9,356 nt of DNA from a virus (lineage: Duplodnaviria > Heunggongvirae > Uroviricota > Caudoviricetes). The notes under the pieces were generated by a model that saw only the letters and a program-made list of their open reading frames with translations, did not search any database and was not told where the DNA came from. Location: the IMG/VR virus record IMGVR_UViG_2778261065_000005. One strand, written 5' to 3'. Below, piece by piece: positions 1-9,356 of this stretch. The stretch's first letter is position 1; every line of letters begins with the position of its first letter. The translations under genes and the position numbers were made by a program.

Positions 1-9
1 TATTAAGAC

Positions 10-29
10 TATCACTTATTTAAGTGATA
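10..29. promoter_or_regulatory. 20-bp perfect palindrome TATCACTTATTTAAGTGATA; candidate operator for a dimeric DNA-binding protein
   Basis: Read directly: 9-bp arms with a 2-nt centre, perfectly self-complementary. It lies in non-coding DNA about 130 bp beyond the operon terminator. No flanking U-tract on either strand, so it is unlikely to be a terminator. Confidence 0.3.
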
Positions 30-160
30 CTGGTTGTCTGGAGATTCAGGGGGCCAGTCTACTGACTGCACTGATTAACTACGTCACCAGCTCACAGATG
101 TCTATGCAGGATCTGCAAACACATCTCGACTATTGTGCCGAACAACTACGAAAACAAACC

Positions 161-188
161 ACATAAAGAAAAGGCCGCGAAAGCGGCC
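161..188 (-). terminator. Rho-independent terminator ending the minus-strand operon
   Basis: GC-rich hairpin GGCCGC-GAAA-GCGGCC at 173-188 (6-bp stem, GAAA loop). On the minus strand it is followed by a U-rich run (plus-strand acataaagaaaa at 161-172). No T-tract follows it on the plus strand, so it is directional for the minus-strand transcript. Confidence 0.6.
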
Positions 189-202
189 TGTGACATGTCA
201 CA
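189..202. repeat. 14-bp perfect palindrome TGTGACATGTCACA abutting the terminator hairpin
   Basis: Read directly: positions 189-202 are self-complementary. Could be a second stem-loop of a compound terminator or a protein-binding site. Confidence 0.4.
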
Positions 203-208
203 CTCACG

Positions 209-349
209 TTATGACAAGCCTATGTATCCTGCTACACCAGATAATATCAAAATAACTGCAACAGCAAATTCGCCATCGTCAATGATACATTTACGGTTCA
301 TAACGCCAAGTGCAACAAGCGCAAACACAACAAGAATAAAAGCAATCAT
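209..349 (-). CDS. Candidate small hydrophobic (two-segment membrane) protein, 46 aa: MIAFILVVFALVALGVMNRKCIIDDGEFAVAVILILSGVAGYIGLS
   Basis: Hand-translated; too short for the supplied track. ATG at 347-349 is preceded on the minus strand by TAAGGATGAGAA (AGGA with a 6-nt spacer), directly after the TAA of the 824-aa gene and upstream of the terminator. Two hydrophobic stretches flank a short polar loop (NRKCIIDDGEF). Wobble positions are more AT-rich than in the large genes, so it is either acquired or non-coding. Confidence 0.35.
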   Translation of the reverse strand: MIAFILVVFALVALGVMNRKCIIDDGEFAVAVILILSGVAGYIGLS

Positions 350-358
350 TTCTCATCC

Positions 359-2833
359 TTATTGCGGAGTGACATCCTGTGGTCGCCACCAGTATGTCTG
401 GTTAAACTCTTTCTTCGAACGTTGCTCCATTTTACGCAAATAGCCTGGTGAAAAATACTCCTGCATCTGGTTAAAGATCATGTGATCGAGAGCCGCCTTC
501 AAGTACCAGAGATTCGCACCTGGCATCAGCCCCTTCCCCAGCTTAACCAGATCACCACCAGTCTGCTCATTCTTCCCTTCCACAGCATTTAACGGTATGC
601 CCTGAGCAATCTTCACTACGTCATCAACCAGACCAGCTACCGGGCCAAGCATCGACGCCAGCGCGCCGCTTCCGTACCTAGTGTGATCTGACAATAAAAA
701 GTCACCGTAAAGGCCAAGACCACCACCTTTCAGTAGAGCACCAAGCCAAAATTTAGCAGCATCTTCTCCTGTCATCTCGCGATGATTACGACCAGACGCA
801 AGGTCGTTAAGTTGCTGAGACAAAGCGCCAAGAATGGTCGTGCTGGCAATAAACGTCGCAATATATGCCGCACGCCCACCAGCAGACGGCATACCCATAG
901 CGCGTGACCAGTGACGCATAACCACCGAGATAGGGAACGATTTAAACAGGAAAACACTTCTCGTTAATTCACCTTTCCATGTTCCACGCTGAATACCAGA
1001 ACCGGTTATCAGTTGCTCACGTGCTCCCGGTGTAATAACAGCCATATCAACTTCTTCAGTTACGGCACCGAGCAGTTTACGCATTGCCTCAAATTTCACG
1101 CGTTCAGGCTCACCAAGATGTTTAACTGCTGAATCAGGGATACGCATAATGCTTTCCGGTGTCAGCATCGTATTATTACCGTTCCCCCAGTCCTCCTGTT
1201 GCGCCAGCTTCCATACGCTCCAGTCTGTGTCAGTAATCCCTTTGCTTTTCAGGATACGAAAATCAGAGTCATCGAGGCTACGAAGGTCTGGTGTCCGTGA
1301 CACTACTTCTCCCAGGCTTCCCATCATGGTTACGCCATAGGCGCGCTTGTGCGCATCTGACCATGCTGTAAGCCCACTGGCACGCATTACCGCCGTTGCA
1401 GCCCAACGAGACACTGACGGCCCCATATTATCCATCGCCCAGCGGTTAACGCTGCCAAGTAGAGATTCCATCGCCAGACCAGCGCGGCGCGCCCGCGCAA
1501 GCTCAGTACGGTTCGTTGGGTCCATAGCTTCAAGCTGGTTGCGGAATAACTGGTTCATTGGAAGGTTGGTCACCTTCGCAGACAGATACATGGTTCCAAG
1601 ATCAGAGAACGATGACAGCAACGCGGATCCGAGTCTGCTGGCAACCAGCCAGTTGCGGATATTGTCAGACCATCGCGCGATGTGCGGATTTGCTACAGGC
1701 TGTGTCTTTCCGGAAATAAAGTTGTACAGATTCTCTGTGTTGTTCGCCAGCCGCTCGACTTTACCGGTTTTACTCGGGTTAGCTGTTGCCGTTTCTGCCT
1801 TCACCTGATCAAGAAGAGAGCGGAAAACATGATCGGGGTTTGGGCCATATGTTTCCACCAGTGCAATATCTTTACTGATACCTTCCAGGTGACCGACCAT
1901 GATTTCCCATAGAGAGCGATCGCCATAAAGTTGCTGATATTGCAGATAGGAATCTGCATCTTTGAAATGTATCTGTCGTGATGCATTACCACGGTTAGCA
2001 CGTGCGCCGGAAATTCGCATTCCGGTATCAGTAAGCTTATTCAGCCCACCAGTAGCGATCGTGTTATAAGCCTCTCCAAGAAATGCAGACAACTCGGCAT
2101 CGTTCATCAGTTGTCCATCGGCTCGGATATAATATTTGCGATCCAGCTTACCTATAACATCGCTAACCCACTTATCCTTTGATACCGCCCCAACCTTTTC
2201 CATAGAATGATGTTGAGGGATCCCCCAGTTTTCGAGATAGCCAATGTCCCCACCAGCATCATTAAACCGGCGGCGCAGCAGCTCTGTAACTTCTCTCCAC
2301 GCCTTAGCACCTTTTCTTGCTTTAGCATTGCCAGTATTTTGCCCCCGCATTTCATATACCAGGTCACGTACGCCCGCTTCATCTTCAAACAGACCAAAAA
2401 AGCGAGGATCAACTGCTTCGAATGCCTCCTGCAATTGACTCAATGCATAATCACGGGTGGCTTTTGTTCTGGATTCAACAGAGAGGAAATTAGATTTACC
2501 GTCTGCATTAAAAGCTATAGTACGGTTAAGAGCGCCAAGTTTCCCATCAGCCCCTTGATAGCTATTGATAAATTTATCCAATCTCTGACGTGCAGCTATA
2601 GTGAGAGCCACACGACGTTTCTTTAATGCCGCTTCTCGCTGTAATTCTTCAGATGCCAATTGTGCTGCACGATACAGCCGCTCTGACTCGGAAAGTTGTC
2701 GCCACGACATAGGGTCATCACGAGCAATGGAGCGCATATTGCGATAAATGCGGTCTTCAATGTTCTGTATTTCTCGCGCCGTTAACGTGCGCTGCGCCGC
2801 CTGCTGGACCGCTTGTATACATTCCTGTCTCAT
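359..2833 (-). CDS. Large internal virion / ejection protein (824 aa)
   Basis: ATG at 2831-2833 with GAGAGG upstream, 5 nt after the stop of the 600-aa gene. Long uninterrupted frame ending at TAA 359-361. Gly-rich hydrophobic segments near the C-terminus (AAYIATFIASTTILGALS, FWLGALLKGGGLGLYGDFLL, GSGALASMLGPVAGLV). Last large gene of the operon. Confidence 0.8.
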   Translation of the reverse strand: MRQECIQAVQQAAQRTLTAREIQNIEDRIYRNMRSIARDDPMSWRQLSESERLYRAAQLASEELQREAALKKRRVALTIAARQRLDKFINSYQGADGKLGALNRTIAFNADGKSNFLSVESRTKATRDYALSQLQEAFEAVDPRFFGLFEDEAGVRDLVYEMRGQNTGNAKARKGAKAWREVTELLRRRFNDAGGDIGYLENWGIPQHHSMEKVGAVSKDKWVSDVIGKLDRKYYIRADGQLMNDAELSAFLGEAYNTIATGGLNKLTDTGMRISGARANRGNASRQIHFKDADSYLQYQQLYGDRSLWEIMVGHLEGISKDIALVETYGPNPDHVFRSLLDQVKAETATANPSKTGKVERLANNTENLYNFISGKTQPVANPHIARWSDNIRNWLVASRLGSALLSSFSDLGTMYLSAKVTNLPMNQLFRNQLEAMDPTNRTELARARRAGLAMESLLGSVNRWAMDNMGPSVSRWAATAVMRASGLTAWSDAHKRAYGVTMMGSLGEVVSRTPDLRSLDDSDFRILKSKGITDTDWSVWKLAQQEDWGNGNNTMLTPESIMRIPDSAVKHLGEPERVKFEAMRKLLGAVTEEVDMAVITPGAREQLITGSGIQRGTWKGELTRSVFLFKSFPISVVMRHWSRAMGMPSAGGRAAYIATFIASTTILGALSQQLNDLASGRNHREMTGEDAAKFWLGALLKGGGLGLYGDFLLSDHTRYGSGALASMLGPVAGLVDDVVKIAQGIPLNAVEGKNEQTGGDLVKLGKGLMPGANLWYLKAALDHMIFNQMQEYFSPGYLRKMEQRSKKEFNQTYWWRPQDVTPQ

Positions 2834-2838
2834 TTAAT

Positions 2839-4641
2839 TTAACCTCTCAAGAAACACGCCACAGCAACATCAAACAGGCTGGAATCCTGTATTGCCTGCT
2901 CACTTTCCCTGTTAGCTTCATCCAGTACTTCACGCGCACTGCGCGATTGTGGATTACCATCATCATCCAGCACGGTGATTATCATGTCAGGTGATTCAAG
3001 CAGCGAGTCTTCAGCTATACGCAGATCAATATCTCCTGCCGGATCTGCCATCATTTTTTGTTCTGTCTGTTGCAATATCTTACCGGGCTCAAAAGGAGCT
3101 ACTTCGTCTGGCGTCCTGACCTCTGCTGTTTTATAGAATGAAACAGCCTGAGCATTAAGTTCACTTTCTGCCTGCTGTCGCCGTGCCAGTTCTGCTCGAG
3201 CTTCAAAAAACTGACCTCCAGGCTCGTGCGGTGCCAACGCGTTACGGGAAAATTCCAGGCGTTCTTGTGCCTGCCGGATTCGTTGATCAATATCACGAAG
3301 TCTGGCCTGTTTATCTGATCGAGCACGAGACAAAGCTTTACCGCTACCGGTTGGCTCTTCTGCAAGAATTTGTGCACGCTGTTCAGTGAGATTTTCAATA
3401 ATTCGTTGGCTATTAGCGATTTCAGACTGGTAAACCTGTCTATCTCCACGCGGCAAAAGCTGCGCGGCCTGTTCTTCAAGCAACCGATTTTCTATAGCGC
3501 GCGCCGTTACTCCATCATCTACAGATGACAGAGCCTCATTAACTGCCTGAGACAGCAGACTCTTGCGCCCAGGAATTTCACTGAAAGATGCAGACTCAAC
3601 AATGCTGGCAACGTCTACAGGTCTCCCCTGGCTAACATCAGACATAGCTTTTCGCAGAGCCTGAATGTGAGAATTGCGCGAAAGCACGTTGATCGGCACG
3701 CCGGGCGCAATATCAATTTCAGCATGATGAGCGGCATTCGCCGCCAGTGCAGCATCAATATCAACTGGTGAAAAATTTGGTGCGCTTGTAGACTCGCCGC
3801 GAGAGTTAATAAATCTGCCGACACCACCAAACGCCACCCCAAGAACAGCATCAATAGCAATTGCCTGTCGATCCAACACATCATACTGGTTAGCCATTTC
3901 GCTATAGCCACCATCACGAAGCGTTTTTGCAGTAAGCCCACGCTGTGCCATACCGAACGCAATATTTGTACCTGCGGCATAGGCAATATCTGGCGTTGCA
4001 CTTACTGCTGTTGCTGCGGCGCGTCGCACTGAACTTTCACCCGTCCGCGCAAGCTGAGCCGCCACACCTTCCGCCAGCGCACCACCAGCACGTAACCCGA
4101 GGCTCATAGGGATCATTGTTCCGGCACCAGCAGTAATACCCTGCACTAATCCCGCTTCCTGCGCCGTCCTGAAATCAACACCCTGTGCTGTCAGCCGTTC
4201 AAACTCAGAAAAACCCTGTAGCGAAGTTACCGCCGCAGCACCTCCGGCCGGACCACCGAGCGTTGTACCGATAACAGCCTGCCCGCCCATATCGAACAAC
4301 CCATAAAGAACCTGCCCGGCGGTTCCGGTTGTCGCGGCATCAGGCGTCAGCCGCTTAACCTGCTGCTCTGCTAGTTTTCTCTGCTCGGCAATGTATGAAA
4401 CTGAAGTGTCATTGAGCGAGGTGTTTTCGTTAACAAACTGAGCAATCGGGGATACGATTTTATCCATCCCTGCCCAGAGCAACTGATCTGGCTTTGCCAC
4501 CAGCCCGGAGTACAAACCAGACAATGCCGCTCCTACAGCATTGTCGAAAAAACCAACATCGCTGTTAAAGCCAGCTGGATTTGATGCTGCTTCGTCAAGC
4601 TGCTGATTCTGGTTTACTGGATTAAGGCCAAAGTAACTCAT
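2839..4641 (-). CDS. Internal virion / ejection protein (600 aa) with Gly/Ala-rich hydrophobic segments and a charged C-terminal helical region
   Basis: ATG at 4639-4641 in an ATGA overlap with the upstream stop; GGAG about 10 nt upstream. The N-terminal half has repeated small-residue hydrophobic stretches (GGQAVIGTTLGGPAGGAAAV, ITAGAGTMIPMSLGLRAGGALAEGVAAQLA, IAIDAVLGVAFGGVG) typical of membrane-inserting segments. The C-terminal third is E/R/Q-rich and likely coiled coil. Confidence 0.8.
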   Translation of the reverse strand: MSYFGLNPVNQNQQLDEAASNPAGFNSDVGFFDNAVGAALSGLYSGLVAKPDQLLWAGMDKIVSPIAQFVNENTSLNDTSVSYIAEQRKLAEQQVKRLTPDAATTGTAGQVLYGLFDMGGQAVIGTTLGGPAGGAAAVTSLQGFSEFERLTAQGVDFRTAQEAGLVQGITAGAGTMIPMSLGLRAGGALAEGVAAQLARTGESSVRRAAATAVSATPDIAYAAGTNIAFGMAQRGLTAKTLRDGGYSEMANQYDVLDRQAIAIDAVLGVAFGGVGRFINSRGESTSAPNFSPVDIDAALAANAAHHAEIDIAPGVPINVLSRNSHIQALRKAMSDVSQGRPVDVASIVESASFSEIPGRKSLLSQAVNEALSSVDDGVTARAIENRLLEEQAAQLLPRGDRQVYQSEIANSQRIIENLTEQRAQILAEEPTGSGKALSRARSDKQARLRDIDQRIRQAQERLEFSRNALAPHEPGGQFFEARAELARRQQAESELNAQAVSFYKTAEVRTPDEVAPFEPGKILQQTEQKMMADPAGDIDLRIAEDSLLESPDMIITVLDDDGNPQSRSAREVLDEANRESEQAIQDSSLFDVAVACFLRG

Positions 4642-7151
4642 TGCGGAATATCTCCGGAGAATCTCTGACGCTTCTGTGTCAGATCAAGAACAACGGGAGA
4701 ACCATCATCTTTTAGCAGATAACCAGTACCAAGTTTCACCAGGTACTGACTATCGCCGTAACTTTGCAAACCATACTGACCAGGCGGTGTTTTTATCCCT
4801 GTGCCAACAACTTGTTCATTCCAAGCCTGATTAACCTGCTTATCGAATTGCTCTGCAGACATTCCCCACGGCAAAAGAACATTCCCCATTCCGTTATAGT
4901 CATGCACGCCACCTGTAGCTACGTTAACAGCCTGTTTCCAGATATCATTGTCAATTTCGCCTGATACCACGCCTTTTTTCGCCATCACACCAGCGTAATA
5001 GTCCTTTGCGATCTCGTATGCCATTGATGCCCCCTGAGCATCACCAGCAAATGCATCCTTCACCATGTCAGAAAACTCAAGGCGGAGATCAGCATCTTTA
5101 GGCATCGGAATACCTTTCGCGTCATCAGTACCTTTACGAGCCGCCGCGCCAGCAAGAATTGTCTGCGCAGCGGTTTCAGGAGACACGGAAACATCCGGAT
5201 TAAACCAGTTTTTTTCTGCCAAAATACCACCTGGCTTATCCATCAGTATCCCGGCAACGGCAGCAGATGGAGCGTTGGCACTGATCTGCTGTAGTGCTGA
5301 CATATACACCTGCCCACCACCAGTGCTCTGCCTGATGGTATCGAGATATGCTGCCTGTTGGGAAACGGGCGCATCACGAAAGAAAACACCGATCTGATTG
5401 GCCTCGTCTTTGGAAAAGAACGTCAGTGGAGTGCCATATGACTTAGCAAGGTCACTGACCTGAGCAGCACGCAAGGCAACGCTCTGTCCAAAGTTATCCT
5501 TATTGCTCATGTCGATAGGCTTTGCCTGTCCGGCGGCAAGAGAGAACTGTACAGGATCAGCCTGTCGCTGCTTTATCACCTGACTTGCAGCCGACACAAC
5601 GTTGTCATAAAGAGCGGCTCGTGCCGCATAACCCTCCCCTGTCTCACCAGTATCCGGGCGTAATTGCTCAACATATGCTGTAATGCTGCTTGTCGGCATG
5701 TTGCGGAAAGAGCCTATATACTGTCCGGCGATTTGCGTATTTCTGAACTCGGTATATCGCAGTTTTCCTTCTCTGACTCCATAAGCTGCAATAAAATCAG
5801 CCTCACCAGGTGGGTTAGGAAATTCAACGCCACGCATATACGCAGCTGTCGCATCGCGAACCTGGCTGTCAATCATCGTTTTATATTCAGCCTGCTGCTG
5901 CCGACGCAGTTGATCCGCCTGTCGCATAAAACTTGCCTGCGCCTCAGGAGATGCCGCATCGAATGCTGCATTACCGGTATAGCGTTTGGTGTTGGTTGGA
6001 ATTGTTGATAAACCAAGTGCTGCACTGACACCAGCAGTTAACTGCTGATCACTGTATGGCTGGCTACCGTTCTCATGATGGATAATGGCTGCACAAAGCG
6101 CCTTCAGGGTATCAGGATTAGATGCATCGAGAGGCTCATCAGCAGAAACGCCAAGTTGTTCGCACACTGCTTTGATATACGACATAGTGTCATTTTTATC
6201 AGTAGGCGGTGCCCAGCGATTAATTATCTCGCTGACGGTATCAATACCCTGCCTCTGATACGACATCAGGTTCCGCCCTAATGCACGAATCCCGTGTTCA
6301 GGTGTTTCGAATTTAGCAAATCGACCATCATCACCGGTCTGGCCTACCCACGGATTAGTTTTGCTGTATTCGAGATTTCCTGGGTTATTGTTGCGTATGC
6401 CACGGGCACGCTCGGAAGAGTCACTATCTGCTACAGCACGGCGAGCTCCAGCAGCAGTATCGCTTAACTCGCCATTACTTTGGATAAATGAGATCGCATT
6501 GTTTGCCGACCACTGGGACAATGCTGCATCAGCAACCTTCTCTTTAAACTCGATTTTCTTGGCCTGTATTTGCTCGTCGCTCCAGCCATGTGCAGCACCG
6601 TACTCCTCAATTTGCTGGAAAGTTTGCTTATTAGCCAATACGTATGCGGCATTGTCGCCATACAATGCTGCGGCATTTTTACCATTGTTCAGCAGCGTCG
6701 CCTGAAACTGACCTTCTTCGTAGGCATTTATTTGCCCTATCTCGTGCCGCCCGGCCTGCGTAGTGAACTGAATACGCTGCTGCTGCGCCTGCTGCATGAA
6801 AGCATTACGAGCCTGTTCATCCGGCAGCGACATAGCCAGTTGTTCGATCTGAGCATCAAACTGCTGCGTATACTCCTGACCTTTTCCAATAGCATTTTTC
6901 CCTTTCAGGTTAAGCAAACCTGTTTCAGGGTTATTCAGCAGATCGCTGCCTGTCTGACTGAGTTTAAGGGATGCCTCCTGAGCCAGAGCGATATTGGCAC
7001 GCTGTTTTGCCTGACCAAAAACATCAATTGTCTCTGCCCCTGCCCGAACAAAAGCATCACCAATACCTGGCTGAGAAAACGTCTGCAAGCCTGCTGACTG
7101 AACTCCACGGCTCTCAACCTGACGTCCGGATACTGTTGGTACGACTGGCAT
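4638..7151 (-). CDS. Large internal virion / ejection protein (837 aa), with a conserved-looking central block
   Basis: Long open frame. The track ORF (862 aa) starts at GTG 7226 and would overlap the upstream gene by 76 nt. The internal ATG at 7149-7151 has a strong Shine-Dalgarno (GGAGGA, 5-nt spacer) and forms a TAATG junction with the upstream stop, so I call the start at 7151. Stop TGA overlaps the next ATG (ATGA). Q-rich helical N-terminal region; distinctive block RGIRNNNPGNLEYSKTNPWVGQ...HHENG. Confidence 0.8.
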   Translation of the reverse strand: MPVVPTVSGRQVESRGVQSAGLQTFSQPGIGDAFVRAGAETIDVFGQAKQRANIALAQEASLKLSQTGSDLLNNPETGLLNLKGKNAIGKGQEYTQQFDAQIEQLAMSLPDEQARNAFMQQAQQQRIQFTTQAGRHEIGQINAYEEGQFQATLLNNGKNAAALYGDNAAYVLANKQTFQQIEEYGAAHGWSDEQIQAKKIEFKEKVADAALSQWSANNAISFIQSNGELSDTAAGARRAVADSDSSERARGIRNNNPGNLEYSKTNPWVGQTGDDGRFAKFETPEHGIRALGRNLMSYQRQGIDTVSEIINRWAPPTDKNDTMSYIKAVCEQLGVSADEPLDASNPDTLKALCAAIIHHENGSQPYSDQQLTAGVSAALGLSTIPTNTKRYTGNAAFDAASPEAQASFMRQADQLRRQQQAEYKTMIDSQVRDATAAYMRGVEFPNPPGEADFIAAYGVREGKLRYTEFRNTQIAGQYIGSFRNMPTSSITAYVEQLRPDTGETGEGYAARAALYDNVVSAASQVIKQRQADPVQFSLAAGQAKPIDMSNKDNFGQSVALRAAQVSDLAKSYGTPLTFFSKDEANQIGVFFRDAPVSQQAAYLDTIRQSTGGGQVYMSALQQISANAPSAAVAGILMDKPGGILAEKNWFNPDVSVSPETAAQTILAGAAARKGTDDAKGIPMPKDADLRLEFSDMVKDAFAGDAQGASMAYEIAKDYYAGVMAKKGVVSGEIDNDIWKQAVNVATGGVHDYNGMGNVLLPWGMSAEQFDKQVNQAWNEQVVGTGIKTPPGQYGLQSYGDSQYLVKLGTGYLLKDDGSPVVLDLTQKRQRFSGDIPQ

Positions 7152-7696
7152 TATAATCCTCCAGGTAATCTGGTTCCTGCTGCTGCCCCGATTGGCGCAG
7201 GAGTGCTTTGAGTAAACGGACTCCACGTCCCACCAAACATCTGGTACGCACCGTATGCCTTCAGAGGCGCAGTGAGCAATGTTGTTGCTGCTCCCACATT
7301 CCCCTGTTTACGGGCTGAACTGGCTTCTGCTTTATAGTTAGCAGCCTGAACCTGATAACCGTAAGCCTCGCGTTGCGCGTTATTCACCGTCGTCAGCGAA
7401 TCAAGGGCGCCAAACTGAGCAGTGTCACCAAATATATCCAGCGCGTTACCTGTAGATAAATCGGCGCCGGTCGCCCCCATTGTCGCCGCCTGTGTACCAA
7501 GCCGCTGTCGGGTCTCTCTGCGCCGTTGCTCAGCTTCAGCGTTACCCCTATTTATTGCATCATTTGCCTGAGCTGTGGCTATATCTGCGTTCGCTTCTGC
7601 AACCTTCGAGGCATACTTTCCCTGTTGGTACTGGGTGTATGCCTGAATGCCACTCATGGCGAGCATTGCGCCACCAGCAATAACCGGATCGCACAT
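7151..7696 (-). CDS. Ala/Gln/Gly-rich small internal virion (core) protein, 181 aa
   Basis: ATG at 7694-7696 preceded by GGAGAG. Low-complexity A/Q/G-rich composition beginning MC..., of similar length and position to the small internal virion protein (T7 gp14-type) of podoviruses. Stop TAA at 7151-7153 overlaps the next ATG (TAATG). Assignment is from composition and synteny, not a verified alignment. Confidence 0.7.
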   Translation of the reverse strand: MCDPVIAGGAMLAMSGIQAYTQYQQGKYASKVAEANADIATAQANDAINRGNAEAEQRRRETRQRLGTQAATMGATGADLSTGNALDIFGDTAQFGALDSLTTVNNAQREAYGYQVQAANYKAEASSARKQGNVGAATTLLTAPLKAYGAYQMFGGTWSPFTQSTPAPIGAAAGTRLPGGL

Positions 7697-8160
7697 TATT
7701 TTCTCTCCATGTGAAATCTGTGGAAATTAAGACCAAGAGCACCATAAGGCGCGGCTTCTTCAAGCCTGAATCCAAGCCAGTGGAGCCATGCTTTGGCAAC
7801 ATGGTTTCGCTCGTCGACGTAGTTTTCCAGGCGCGGATAAACTGCCAGCATCTGCCGCAATACAGGGTGGCAGTGGCGAAGAAATGTCTTCTGATATTTT
7901 TCAATACGGCTGGTCCCGACCAGCCAGGGCGTACCATTGCCACCGATCATTGACGCCGGAGATACACCAAACATGGTTACCAGTTCTCCGTTCGCGAACC
8001 CTGACCAGGCCATAGTCGCAGTGCGCAGACCAACACGCAGCGCATCTTCGGTAGTCATCAGCGATACCGCATACAGTTCGTCAATATCAGCCTGACGAAC
8101 ATCCGGCAAAATCATCTGAAGATGCTCTTCGGTTGCGGGAATAATTTGAACACCAATCAT
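7696..8160 (-). CDS. Phage virion-associated protein of unknown function (154 aa)
   Basis: ATG at 8158-8160 preceded by GGGGGA with a 5-nt spacer. Start overlaps the upstream stop (TGATG) and the stop TAA overlaps the downstream ATG (TAATG), indicating translational coupling. Size and position match the small protein that precedes core proteins in podovirus clusters. Function not assignable by eye. Confidence 0.75.
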   Translation of the reverse strand: MIGVQIIPATEEHLQMILPDVRQADIDELYAVSLMTTEDALRVGLRTATMAWSGFANGELVTMFGVSPASMIGGNGTPWLVGTSRIEKYQKTFLRHCHPVLRQMLAVYPRLENYVDERNHVAKAWLHWLGFRLEEAAPYGALGLNFHRFHMERK

Positions 8161-9356
8161 CAGAATCCCCCAACAGTAAGGCGAGGAATAACGGCAAGAA
8201 CAGACAGCGGCAACGGATCAAGCTGACGGATTTTTACACGTCCGTTTTTGCCCCAGTTACTGTCCAGTTTCACTTCTACTTTTCCGGTAGCATCATCAAC
8301 AGGATCATCGTAGAACTCGAATTCACGCTGTGGATATTCGTACCATTTACCGCCGGGCGTAGTCGCCCAGATGCCGCGGCTGGCATTCACAACCAGAGTA
8401 ACGGATGGGATCACCTGTTTTTTGTCCAGCAGCGTTTCCTGTCCGTTAATGTTGATATCCAGTGTTTCGAATTCAGCAGTTATTGGCAGGCCGATGTGCA
8501 CTACAGCCCCCGGAGATTCCAGCGTGACGGCACCTCCGGAAACCACTTTCTGTGGTTCCACGTTCGCATCAGAGAGAATGTTTACGGTCTGGCCTTCAAG
8601 ATGAGACAGGCCTCCAAATGTCCGGCGCGCCATCTGCCAGTTCGTGGTGGCCACATTCCTGAGGGATGGCGGGACGTTCCTGTTAGCACGAACCACTACA
8701 GCGGTATTGCTGGTTACAGAAATAATGTCGCAACGTAATTCTTTTGACACTTCATCGCCAGTATCAGGATCAGTTCCGGTATAAGGGAATTGTAGTTGCG
8801 CACCGACATCACTACTGGTGAAGTACGCACCACCAGAAATACTGATTGTATATTCCACGCGGTAATCCCATTCACCAGAACCACCAGTGATGGTCATCGT
8901 TCTGTCAGACGTATTTCTTCCATCATAGCTAAGGCCAGAATCAACAAAGAAAGCATCTTCATCGCTGGTAAATAAACGGCTGGACAGCCGCTCGATGTAT
9001 CTCACTGTTTGCCCGTTAACGGTTCGGTTAACGACGAAATACACCGCATCTTCATTTCCTTCGCTGATACTGCATGTGCTTTCATATTTTCCGGTACTGG
9101 ACTGTGGTGCCCATGCAAAAACCTGTTGATCACGCAAATAGGTCATCACCAGTAATTTACCGTCATCACGAATGCAGAAGGCGCTGGAGTAAGGGACAAT
9201 AGAGAAGCACCAGTCAACAATGCTGTGCTTCTGAAAAAGATGATTGGCAAGGATAGTAAGGTCGTTCCCCTGATAGCCGTCAACATCGAATGAGTAGATA
9301 CTGTTATGGCCTGCAAGTTTTTTTCTACCCTGGTTTCCCAGATTGCAGGCATGCCA
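8160..9356 (-). CDS. Phage virion structural protein, partial (5' end lies beyond the window; at least 398 codons here). Possibly a tail hub/nozzle-type protein by position.
   Basis: The frame of the listed 329-aa ORF (8160..9149) stays open with no stop codon up to the window edge at 9356, and reads as ordinary protein (WHACNLGNQGRKKLAGHNSIYSFDVDGYQGNDLTILANHLFQKHSIVDW...). The track ORF begins at GTG 9149 only because there is no start codon further upstream inside the window. Stop TGA at 8160-8162 overlaps the next ATG (TGATG). Product is a guess from position immediately upstream of the core-protein genes. Confidence 0.7.
   Translation of the reverse strand, partial: WHACNLGNQGRKKLAGHNSIYSFDVDGYQGNDLTILANHLFQKHSIVDWCFSIVPYSSAFCIRDDGKLLVMTYLRDQQVFAWAPQSSTGKYESTCSISEGNEDAVYFVVNRTVNGQTVRYIERLSSRLFTSDEDAFFVDSGLSYDGRNTSDRTMTITGGSGEWDYRVEYTISISGGAYFTSSDVGAQLQFPYTGTDPDTGDEVSKELRCDIISVTSNTAVVVRANRNVPPSLRNVATTNWQMARRTFGGLSHLEGQTVNILSDANVEPQKVVSGGAVTLESPGAVVHIGLPITAEFETLDININGQETLLDKKQVIPSVTLVVNASRGIWATTPGGKWYEYPQREFEFYDDPVDDATGKVEVKLDSNWGKNGRVKIRQLDPLPLSVLAVIPRLTVGGF

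Follow-up and report, generated by a model that had tools for sequence, protein, structure and literature searches.

The closest described relatives of the locus studied here are phage phiV10 (DQ126339/NC_007804, Uetakevirus) and Salmonella phage epsilon15, and its gene plan is also that of phage T7. The locus is IMG/VR virus record IMGVR_UViG_2778261065_000005, a stretch of 9,356 nucleotides (nt) from a tailed virus (Caudoviricetes); "the window" denotes this whole stretch. It carries a block of coupled genes that resembles the internal core or ejection module of these phages, and its last two large genes, encoding proteins of 600 and 824 amino acids (aa), read as the two halves of a single giant ejected protein.

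The genes p15-p21 of phiV10 are the same as those of the window and stand in the same order, and epsilon15 gp12-gp18 have the same seven-gene layout with tight junctions. T7 genes 12-16 also follow this order, i.e. nozzle, small protein, a protein of ~190 aa, one of ~800 aa, and the largest protein or proteins. In phage PhiXacm4-11, described in a cryo-electron microscopy (cryo-EM) preprint, the same plan is seen as gp33 (167 aa), gp34 (730 aa, with a transglycosylase) and gp35 (2,300 aa). An internal core above the portal, and tubular density during infection, were observed in epsilon15 by cryo-EM and cryo-electron tomography (PMC5850374).

T7 gp16 is a single polypeptide of ~1,300 aa with an N-terminal lytic transglycosylase, whereas the window has two genes (600 + 824 aa) in this place. 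The hydrolase of the window belongs to another family (PHA02564) and is located in the gp15-position protein, whereas that of T7 is at the N terminus of gp16. Compared with phiV10, the window is without the 5' 445 nozzle codons, owing to an insertion of the insertion sequence (IS) family IS110, is without the Bro-N 'moron', and has an IS2 in the p24 homologue. Compared with epsilon15, the divergence grows along the operon, and epsilon15 gp17 is a protein of 918 aa with an insertion.

We note that the published assignments for epsilon15 are not uniform. In Table 1 of PMC8954989, gp11 (229 aa), gp12 (499 aa) and gp13 (708 aa) figure as its ejection proteins, whereas in the epsilon15 record AY150271 these proteins have 201, 825 and 154 aa and are the adaptor (HHpred match to the T7 tail tubular protein A), the nozzle and a GNAT-fold protein, respectively. 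The listed sizes look like those of a P22-like phage, and the placement of epsilon15 in the tree of that paper is therefore doubtful.

Identity of the locus and its relatives

The window is very probably a fragment of a phiV10/epsilon15-like (Uetakevirus) E. coli prophage, comprising the distal late morphogenesis operon with the genes of the internal virion and ejection proteins. In a nucleotide comparison, positions 61-9297 are 98.0% identical to phiV10. Identity reaches 100% with a prophage of E. coli MFDS1019527, save for an IS2 inside the 824-aa gene of that strain, and at least 80% of the window is present in 307 of 5,426 complete genomes of E. coli. At the protein level the identity is 97-100% to phiV10 gp15-gp21, with the same gene order, and 28-89% to epsilon15 gp12-gp17. 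This order is kept in all of 80 IMG/VR relatives as well as in phiV10 and epsilon15. The block is already known, its relatives were sequenced and annotated years ago, and it is an ordinary genome feature.

All proteins of the window match phage families in PHROGs. In phiV10, epsilon15 and the E. coli prophage the block is preceded by the genes of terminase, portal, protease, major capsid, cement/staple and adaptor proteins, and is followed by tailspike, O-antigen acetyltransferase, lysis cassette and integrase genes. The original prediction, made from the sequence alone, was a podovirus core/ejection module of the T7 or epsilon15 type, and with the corrections given below it agrees with the 98% DNA identity to the epsilon15-like phiV10. 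It had also named two findings that would speak against it, namely homology to a non-phage system and a neighbourhood free of other phage morphogenesis genes. Neither was found, because the proteins match phage families, the DNA is close to that of phiV10, and in phiV10, epsilon15 and the intact prophage the block is flanked by morphogenesis genes (adaptor, capsid, portal, terminase and tailspike) and lysis genes.

The window contains no tRNA genes, none of its proteins matches NCBIfam, and the nozzle fragment and the 837-, 600- and 824-aa proteins have no match in Pfam. Comparison of all window proteins with T7 gp11-gp16 by phmmer and BLASTP gave nothing significant.

Gene arrangement and expression signals

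All seven coupled genes lie on the minus strand, and transcription runs from position 9356 towards position 1. The nozzle gene is followed by genes for proteins of 154, 181, 837, 600 and 824 aa, and then by one for a protein of 46 aa. The features of the block are as follows, with the amino acid identity to the epsilon15 protein in brackets.

8160..9297, minus strand: 3' part of the tail nozzle gene, 378 codons, truncated by an IS; phiV10 gp15, epsilon15 gp12 (89%, for the C-terminal part), analogue of T7 gp12
7696..8160, minus strand: 154-aa GNAT-fold protein; phiV10 gp16, epsilon15 gp13 (62%), T7 gp13 position
7151..7696, minus strand: 181-aa Ala/Gly/Gln-rich protein; phiV10 gp17, epsilon15 gp14 (78%), T7 gp14-family core protein
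4638..7151, minus strand: 837-aa protein; phiV10 gp18, epsilon15 gp15 (59%), T7 gp15 position
5958..6407, minus strand: PHA02564-type muralytic domain, residues 249-398 of the 837-aa protein
2839..4641, minus strand: 600-aa protein; phiV10 gp19, epsilon15 gp16 (33%), reads as the N-terminal half of a giant ejected protein
359..2833, minus strand: 824-aa all-helical protein; phiV10 gp20, epsilon15 gp17 (28%), reads as the C-terminal half of a giant ejected protein
209..349, minus strand: 46-aa open reading frame (ORF), homologue of phiV10p21, with two hydrophobic helices and an AAGGA Shine-Dalgarno sequence
172..189, minus strand: intrinsic terminator, strong hairpin AGGCCGC-TTTC-GCGGCCT followed by a T-run; found by a scan, 7 pairs, of which 6 are G-C

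The junctions between the genes, all on the minus strand, were recomputed:

nozzle to 154 aa: TGATG, 1-nt overlap at 8160
154 to 181 aa: TAATG at 7696
181 to 837 aa: TAATG at 7151
837 to 600 aa: ATGA, 4-nt overlap at 4641/4638
600 to 824 aa: 5-nt gap, stop codon at 2841-2839 and start at 2833
824 to 46 aa: 9-nt gap

The first five junctions are exactly those of the original prediction. Shine-Dalgarno sequences had been said to be embedded in the upstream coding sequence, and this holds at every start: sequences of the GGAG/GAGG type lie 5-9 nt before each start codon, within the preceding coding sequence. The junction pattern is real and is not unusual, overlapping stop and start codons being common in phage late operons. 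The predicted six-gene operon was right as to the coupling and wrong as to the count, since the seventh, 46-aa ORF and the terminator had been missed. The terminator separates the operon from a convergent gene, and phiV10 has an annotated terminator at the equivalent place. Internal promoter-like sites are no more common in the block than in shuffled sequence (8 found, 11.4 expected), and the block therefore reads as one transcription unit.

Co-translation with fixed stoichiometry had been proposed from the coupling. Translational coupling gives coordinated synthesis, and this part of the proposal stands; it does not imply fixed, equal stoichiometry, because the T7 core proteins are present in the ratio 8:8:4 (PMC11784390). 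The glycine-rich hydrophobic segments that had been noted in the three large proteins are present as well, although they are modest and are better described as uncharged or hydrophobic stretches (residues 118-145 and 259-279 of the 600-aa protein, 724-743 of the 824-aa protein and 608-637 of the 837-aa protein).

The 46-aa ORF matches PHROG 7892 (expectation value, E, 5.5e-33) and is 98% identical to phiV10p21, which is annotated as 'putative integral membrane protein'; its Kyte-Doolittle hydropathy maxima are 2.2-2.3. Its positional equivalent in epsilon15 is gp18 (64 aa). A role in the virion or in ejection, comparable to that of the small T7 proteins gp6.7 and gp7.3, is conceivable, and so is one as a membrane 'moron'.

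The 600-aa and 824-aa proteins as a probable split giant protein

The 600-aa protein is 97% identical to phiV10p19 and 33% identical to epsilon15 gp16, and it matches PHROG 1145. Its residues ~1-357 form a conserved glycine-rich module; the rest is charged, rich in Gln, Glu and Arg as judged by its composition, and has no recognised domain. The 824-aa protein is 99% identical to phiV10p20, 28% identical to epsilon15 gp17 and matches PHROG 684 'virion structural protein'. Its AlphaFold2 model is all-helical (predicted local distance difference test, pLDDT, 83.8; predicted template modelling score, pTM, 0.84), and no solved structure matches it. Sequence searches of the PDB with the two proteins, and with a 40-sequence profile of the 824-aa family, gave nothing. 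Neither protein has a Pfam domain or a recognisable effector domain, and neither contains a hydrolase domain.

The 824-aa homologue search and the IMG/VR search for related loci returned only close relatives (87-99% identity), which were of no use for deep profiles. An exhaustive search of 1.8 billion representative proteins gave 5,086 representatives of the 824-aa family, and the best 150 of these were analysed. The large majority (121 of the 150) are 700-950 aa long, and five are fused proteins of 1,707-2,913 aa. The five are representatives at 50% identity or less, mutually diverged and derived from different samples. At the N terminus each of the five (P0139, P0148, P0235, P0194 and P0142) matches the 600-aa protein over its first ~350 residues (E 3e-23 to 9e-9), and all five have a complete 824-aa-like C terminus. 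P0194 even keeps the last 58 residues of the 600-aa protein directly before the 824-aa-like part.

The gene context was looked up for four of the fused proteins (P0139, P0142, P0148 and P0194, with P0235 left out). Where upstream sequence exists, the giant gene follows genes for an adaptor, a nozzle, a small protein, a gp14-like and a gp15-like protein, each homologous to that of the window. A T7-type terminase gene follows the giant gene in two cases, and in one of the loci (L089) a T7 tail fibre gene is found there too, so the giant gene of this locus occupies the slot of T7 gene 16.

Between their ends the fused proteins carry a ddrB-ParB and a RadC-like JAB domain, an ART-PolyVal ADP-ribosyltransferase, or a phiKZ gp144-type lytic transglycosylase. 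The domains ddrB-ParB, RadC-like JAB and ART-PolyVal are known from 'polyvalent proteins', which are thought to be injected with phage DNA (Iyer et al. 2017, PMC5512222). These polyvalent giants (1,700-2,900 aa) and PhiXacm4-11 gp35 have ends that correspond to the N-terminal ~350 residues of the 600-aa protein and to the whole 824-aa protein; the giants hold effector domains between these ends, whereas the window pair has none that is recognisable. In a distant split relative (L098, positions 1-711) the gene upstream of the 824-aa-family gene overlaps it by ATGA and ends in an ART-PolyVal domain (E 1.4e-21), so the upstream half, too, can carry injected effector cargo. Taken together, the fusions, the shared gene slot, the split relative and the plan of PhiXacm4-11 mean that the window pair reads, at the level of sequence, as a split, cargo-free form of the single giant gp16-position protein that related phages would eject. 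Two genes where T7 has one had been predicted, and both the natural fusions and a profile match to T7 gp16 support this.

The profile match concerns the 824-aa family. When T7 gp16 alone was compared with the 150 members of this family, weak alignments fell repeatedly on the same stretch (best E 5e-5). A 40-sequence profile of the 824-aa family was then aligned by hhalign with an 8-sequence profile of the C-terminal 418 residues of T7-like gp16, giving a probability (Prob) of 71.5% and E 3.6e-5 over 154 columns. The aligned parts are residues 489-671 of the 824-aa protein and ~993-1149 of gp16, which share an FKSF motif followed by a hydrophobic helix. With control templates, one reversed and ten column-shuffled, the score was 15-26, as against 49.5 for the real one, and Prob was at most 1.2%. 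The 824-aa family is thus likely, though not proven, to be homologous to the C-terminal third of T7 gp16.

These results suggest a more general picture, which we offer tentatively as one that is about as easily wrong as right, and perhaps slightly more so. The epsilon15-type gp16 + gp17 pair would be the minimal, cargo-free, split 'chassis' of giant podovirus ejected proteins. The N-terminal glycine-rich module and the C-terminal module of ~820 aa may bracket a permissive site, at which other phages may have inserted ADP-ribosyltransferase, ParB-like, JAB and transglycosylase domains that are injected with the DNA.

The 181-aa and 837-aa proteins

The ~180-aa protein had been described as rich in Ala and Gln, which is correct: it has 181 residues with 20.4% A, 8.3% Q and 11.6% G. 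It exceeds the cut-off of the Pfam family PF24072 T7_gp14 (31.2 bits, cut-off 27, E 2.5e-7), and the match extends over residues 1-160 of the protein and positions 1-174 of the 187 in the model. Annotation points in the same direction, as the RefSeq record, produced by the Prokaryotic Genome Annotation Pipeline (PGAP), calls the orthologue in this place a 'virion core protein, T7 gp14 family', and the protein matches PHROG 418 'internal virion protein'. An hhalign comparison of the small gp14-like family alignment with T7 gp14 alone was not significant, and a PDB sequence search with the 181-aa protein gave nothing.

The gene for this protein exists as two alleles in the 80 IMG/VR relatives, which are otherwise 90-99% identical to the window: its identity to window 7151-7696 is either ~99-100% or ~63-64%. 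In the loci with the divergent allele (L038-L061 and L074-L084) the adjacent 837-aa gene is slightly less identical, 90-95%. This suggests cassette exchange at the gp14-like gene, as far as sequence comparison can tell.

The 837-aa protein is 98% identical to phiV10p18 and 59% identical to epsilon15 gp15, which is annotated as 'putative lytic transglycosylase', and matches PHROG 992. Its muralytic domain is similar to Gp29 in the PDB (9vvp_L, E 4e-38) and to the Enc34 endolysin's catalytic domain (7q47_A, E 3e-17 to 3e-19). The catalytic Glu of the HENGS motif (E360), W313 and Y325 align with Enc34 and are invariant across the window, phiV10 and epsilon15; the roles of these residues and the activity were shown for the family member Enc34 ORF39 (PMC8943055). 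The non-enzymatic parts of the protein are conserved in the gp15-position proteins of four related loci (L086-L089, E 8e-38 to 4e-16). By domain assignment the cell-wall-cutting domain is in the 837-aa protein and not in the last protein. By analogy with T7 the 837-aa protein is presumed to be a periplasmic tunnel protein that carries a cell-wall hydrolase. With T7 gp15 it agrees only in position and size (837 vs 747 aa), and hhalign comparisons of its small family alignment with T7 gp16 and gp14 were not significant.

The wall-degrading domain differs between relatives in both type and place. It is of the PHA02564 type in the gp15-position protein of the window (5958-6407), a Glyco_hydro_108 domain in the gp15-position protein of L086 (7341-10004), and a phiKZ gp144-type transglycosylase in the giant protein of L089 (2577-7700; residues ~370-490 of P0142). 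The PDB chain Gp29 (9vvp_L) has 1,295 aa with an N-terminal PHA02564 domain; it probably represents a gp16-like ejection protein from a podovirus whose structure was solved recently.

The tail nozzle and the 154-aa protein

The first 'large protein' of the block had been taken for a core protein. This was mistaken, as it consists of the C-terminal 378 residues of a tail nozzle, i.e. an external part of the tail (8CK1). The fragment matches residues 457-828 of the 830 in 8ck1_A, the phage Carin-1 chain named 'Tail Nozzle' (E 1.6e-85), and from residue 21 of the window translation onwards it is 99% identical to phiV10p15 and 89% identical to epsilon15 gp12. The full nozzle gene of phiV10 has 823 codons. 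The nozzle frame is continuous to the end of the window, and a 329-aa ORF with a GTG start and a 68-aa ORF are artefacts of the ORF list. A frameshift or extra junction at 9146-9149 ('GTGATG') was also considered and ruled out, the nozzle frame being open here and aligning without gaps to phiV10.

The AlphaFold2 model of the 154-aa protein (pLDDT 94.1) has a GNAT fold: the best Foldseek matches (E 5e-9; template modelling, TM, scores 0.65-0.76) are GNAT acetyltransferases, the top 50 are without exception GNAT enzymes (TM 0.6-0.76), and there are 476 PDB matches at E <= 0.001. This agrees with an HHpred note in the epsilon15 record. The protein matches PHROG 308 'internal virion protein', and one homologue is named DUF2833 by UniRef. 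Its score against the Pfam family PF11090 T7_Gp13 (DUF2833) is 14.5 bits, below the cut-off of 25, and a family alignment of 40 homologues compares weakly with T7 gp13 in hhalign (Prob 38.6%, E 3e-4). The junction of strand 4 and the following helix reads LVGTSRIEKYQ (residues 80-90), and inspection by eye found no acetyl-CoA pyrophosphate-binding motif Q/R-x-x-G-x-G/A there; the protein therefore may not be an enzyme. Judging from the model, catalytic activity is doubtful, and by analogy with T7 gp13 the protein is most likely an assembly factor or a minor internal protein.

Window ends and insertion sequences

Both ends of the window lie in mobile elements:

1..62, strand not assigned: terminal 62 bases of IS2, abutting phage DNA
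61..166, plus strand: last 106 nt of a phiV10p24/epsilon15 gp19-like gene, cut by IS2 and convergent to the operon
9289..9356, strand not assigned: end of an IS110-family insertion sequence within the nozzle gene, 98.6% match to a multicopy element

Positions 1-62 are 100% identical to the IS2 end beside an annotated IS2 transposase gene in E. coli MFDS1019527 (positions 15582-15643 of locus L001), and the thousands of multicopy matches in E. coli genomes probably stem from this end. Positions 61-166 align to 12001-12106 of the phiV10 locus L002, the end of the coding sequence PhiV10p24, with the stop codon TAA at 164-166. At the other end, no phage relative matches the window beyond 9297. Three genomes of E. 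coli have 6-18 copies of the element at 9289-9356, which lies beside an IS110-family transposase gene; these three are the only E. coli genomes that it matches, and MFDS1019527 has 6 copies. The IS2 of the MFDS1019527 prophage sits at another site, inside the 824-aa gene.

The window has the look of a complete contig from short reads, broken in repeats. If the IS joins are real, this prophage copy is probably defective and would form no infectious particles, because the nozzle gene is interrupted. The five genes downstream of the nozzle are intact despite the IS ends.

Between the convergent units phiV10 has an insert of ~1 kb (12107-13118 of L002, corresponding to window 164-172) with a Bro-N domain gene and a small ORF. 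It is absent from the window and from the MFDS1019527 prophage. The difference is a typical 'moron' polymorphism.

Alternative explanations

A block of this kind could in principle belong to a non-phage system, i.e. a tailocin, a gene transfer agent or a secretion apparatus with borrowed phage-like genes, since the window itself has no capsid, portal or terminase gene and has IS ends on both sides. We consider this extremely improbable: the window is 98% identical to the plaque-forming phiV10, all its proteins match phage families in PHROGs, and its intact relatives are flanked by terminase, portal, capsid, tailspike, lysis and integrase genes. A more specific proposal is that the 600- and 824-aa proteins are independent proteins with separate roles, and that their fused relatives are artefacts of gene calling or assembly, or functionally mute secondary fusions. 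The fused forms are indeed rare (5 of the 150 best representatives exceed 1,500 aa, and 121 are 700-950 aa), the two genes of the window are in different frames with a stop codon and 5 nt between them, so that read-through does not occur, and according to PMC12391199 gp16 and gp17 are handled as separate in the genetics of epsilon15. The five fused proteins are, however, mutually diverged, come from different samples and have both halves in the right order; the four that were looked up sit in the same slot after a gp15-like gene, and P0194 retains the last 58 residues of the 600-aa protein before its 824-aa-like part. PhiXacm4-11 has its 2,300-aa protein in the same slot, and in the split relative the upstream gene, which has the ART-PolyVal domain at its end, shares an ATGA overlap with the 824-aa-family gene. 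Independent roles therefore appear unlikely.

The 837- and 824-aa proteins, i.e. the counterparts of epsilon15 gp15 and gp17, might also form an external central tail tube, part of the adsorption apparatus on the portal, rather than an ejected core. Attachment of gp17 in epsilon15 is said to have depended on gp15 and gp16. The packaging/injection (tail) device of epsilon15 is given as gp4, gp20, gp15 and gp17/16 by Guichard et al. 2013, as far as the summary in PMC12391199 goes. On the other side, homologues of the adaptor (epsilon15 gp11) and of the nozzle (8CK1, E 1.6e-85) already encode the tail tube, and the 181-aa protein next to these proteins is a member of the T7 gp14 core family. Like ejection proteins, the 837-aa protein has a muralytic domain; the 824-aa family gives a match to T7 gp16, and epsilon15 has a visible internal core (PMC5850374). 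We regard the tail tube as a distinctly unlikely role for these proteins. Besides the epsilon15 tail device, some further points weigh against an ejection module as read here. Where and in which order these proteins are ejected is inferred by analogy. The link to T7 gp16 is moderate, with only 8 template sequences, and Prob falls to 7% with T7 alone. No similarity of the 837-aa family to T7 gp15 was found, either by hhalign with a 6-sequence profile (Prob 0.8%) or by phmmer and BLASTP (nothing significant). Finally, the IS ends could be artefacts of the contig ends rather than true insertions beside phage DNA.

Possible mechanism of ejection

If the block encodes an ejection module with a split gp16-position protein, the mechanism may be sketched after the ejectosomes of T7 and PhiM1 (PMC11784390, bioRxiv 10.1101/2024.02.19.577657; for core packing also PMC8954989). 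The gp14-like, 837-aa and 600 + 824 aa proteins would be packed inside the capsid as a core on the portal, as in T7, PhiM1 and epsilon15. Binding of the tailspike would open the nozzle, and the core proteins would unfold and exit ahead of the DNA. The gp14-like protein may then line or extend a channel across the outer membrane, while the 837-aa protein would digest peptidoglycan with its PHA02564 domain and build a periplasmic tube. The 600 + 824 aa pair would reach or cross the inner membrane and complete the channel there. The 154-aa GNAT-fold protein may act as a gp13-like assembly or internal protein.

Significance

As a genome feature the block is a common E. coli prophage module and routine, and its value is modest and comparative. 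The comparison indicates that epsilon15-type phages share the nozzle/gp13/gp14/gp15/gp16 plan of T7, that the domain for cutting the wall changes place between the proteins at the gp15 and gp16 positions, and that the last protein occurs both split and fused and can take up effector domains. Such comparisons are of use in annotating the many 'hypothetical proteins' of these prophages, and they correct assignments in the literature. In the accessible literature we did not find it stated that the giant protein may be split or fused, that the hydrolase domain is mobile or that there is a link to gp16, and these points are of modest, specialist interest. If the 'chassis' interpretation of the gp16 + gp17 pair is true, it would join the T7 gp16 family, the core proteins of the epsilon15/BPP-1 type and the phage polyvalent proteins in one lineage, and it would indicate a natural site where cargo for delivery by podoviruses could be inserted into a protein that they eject.

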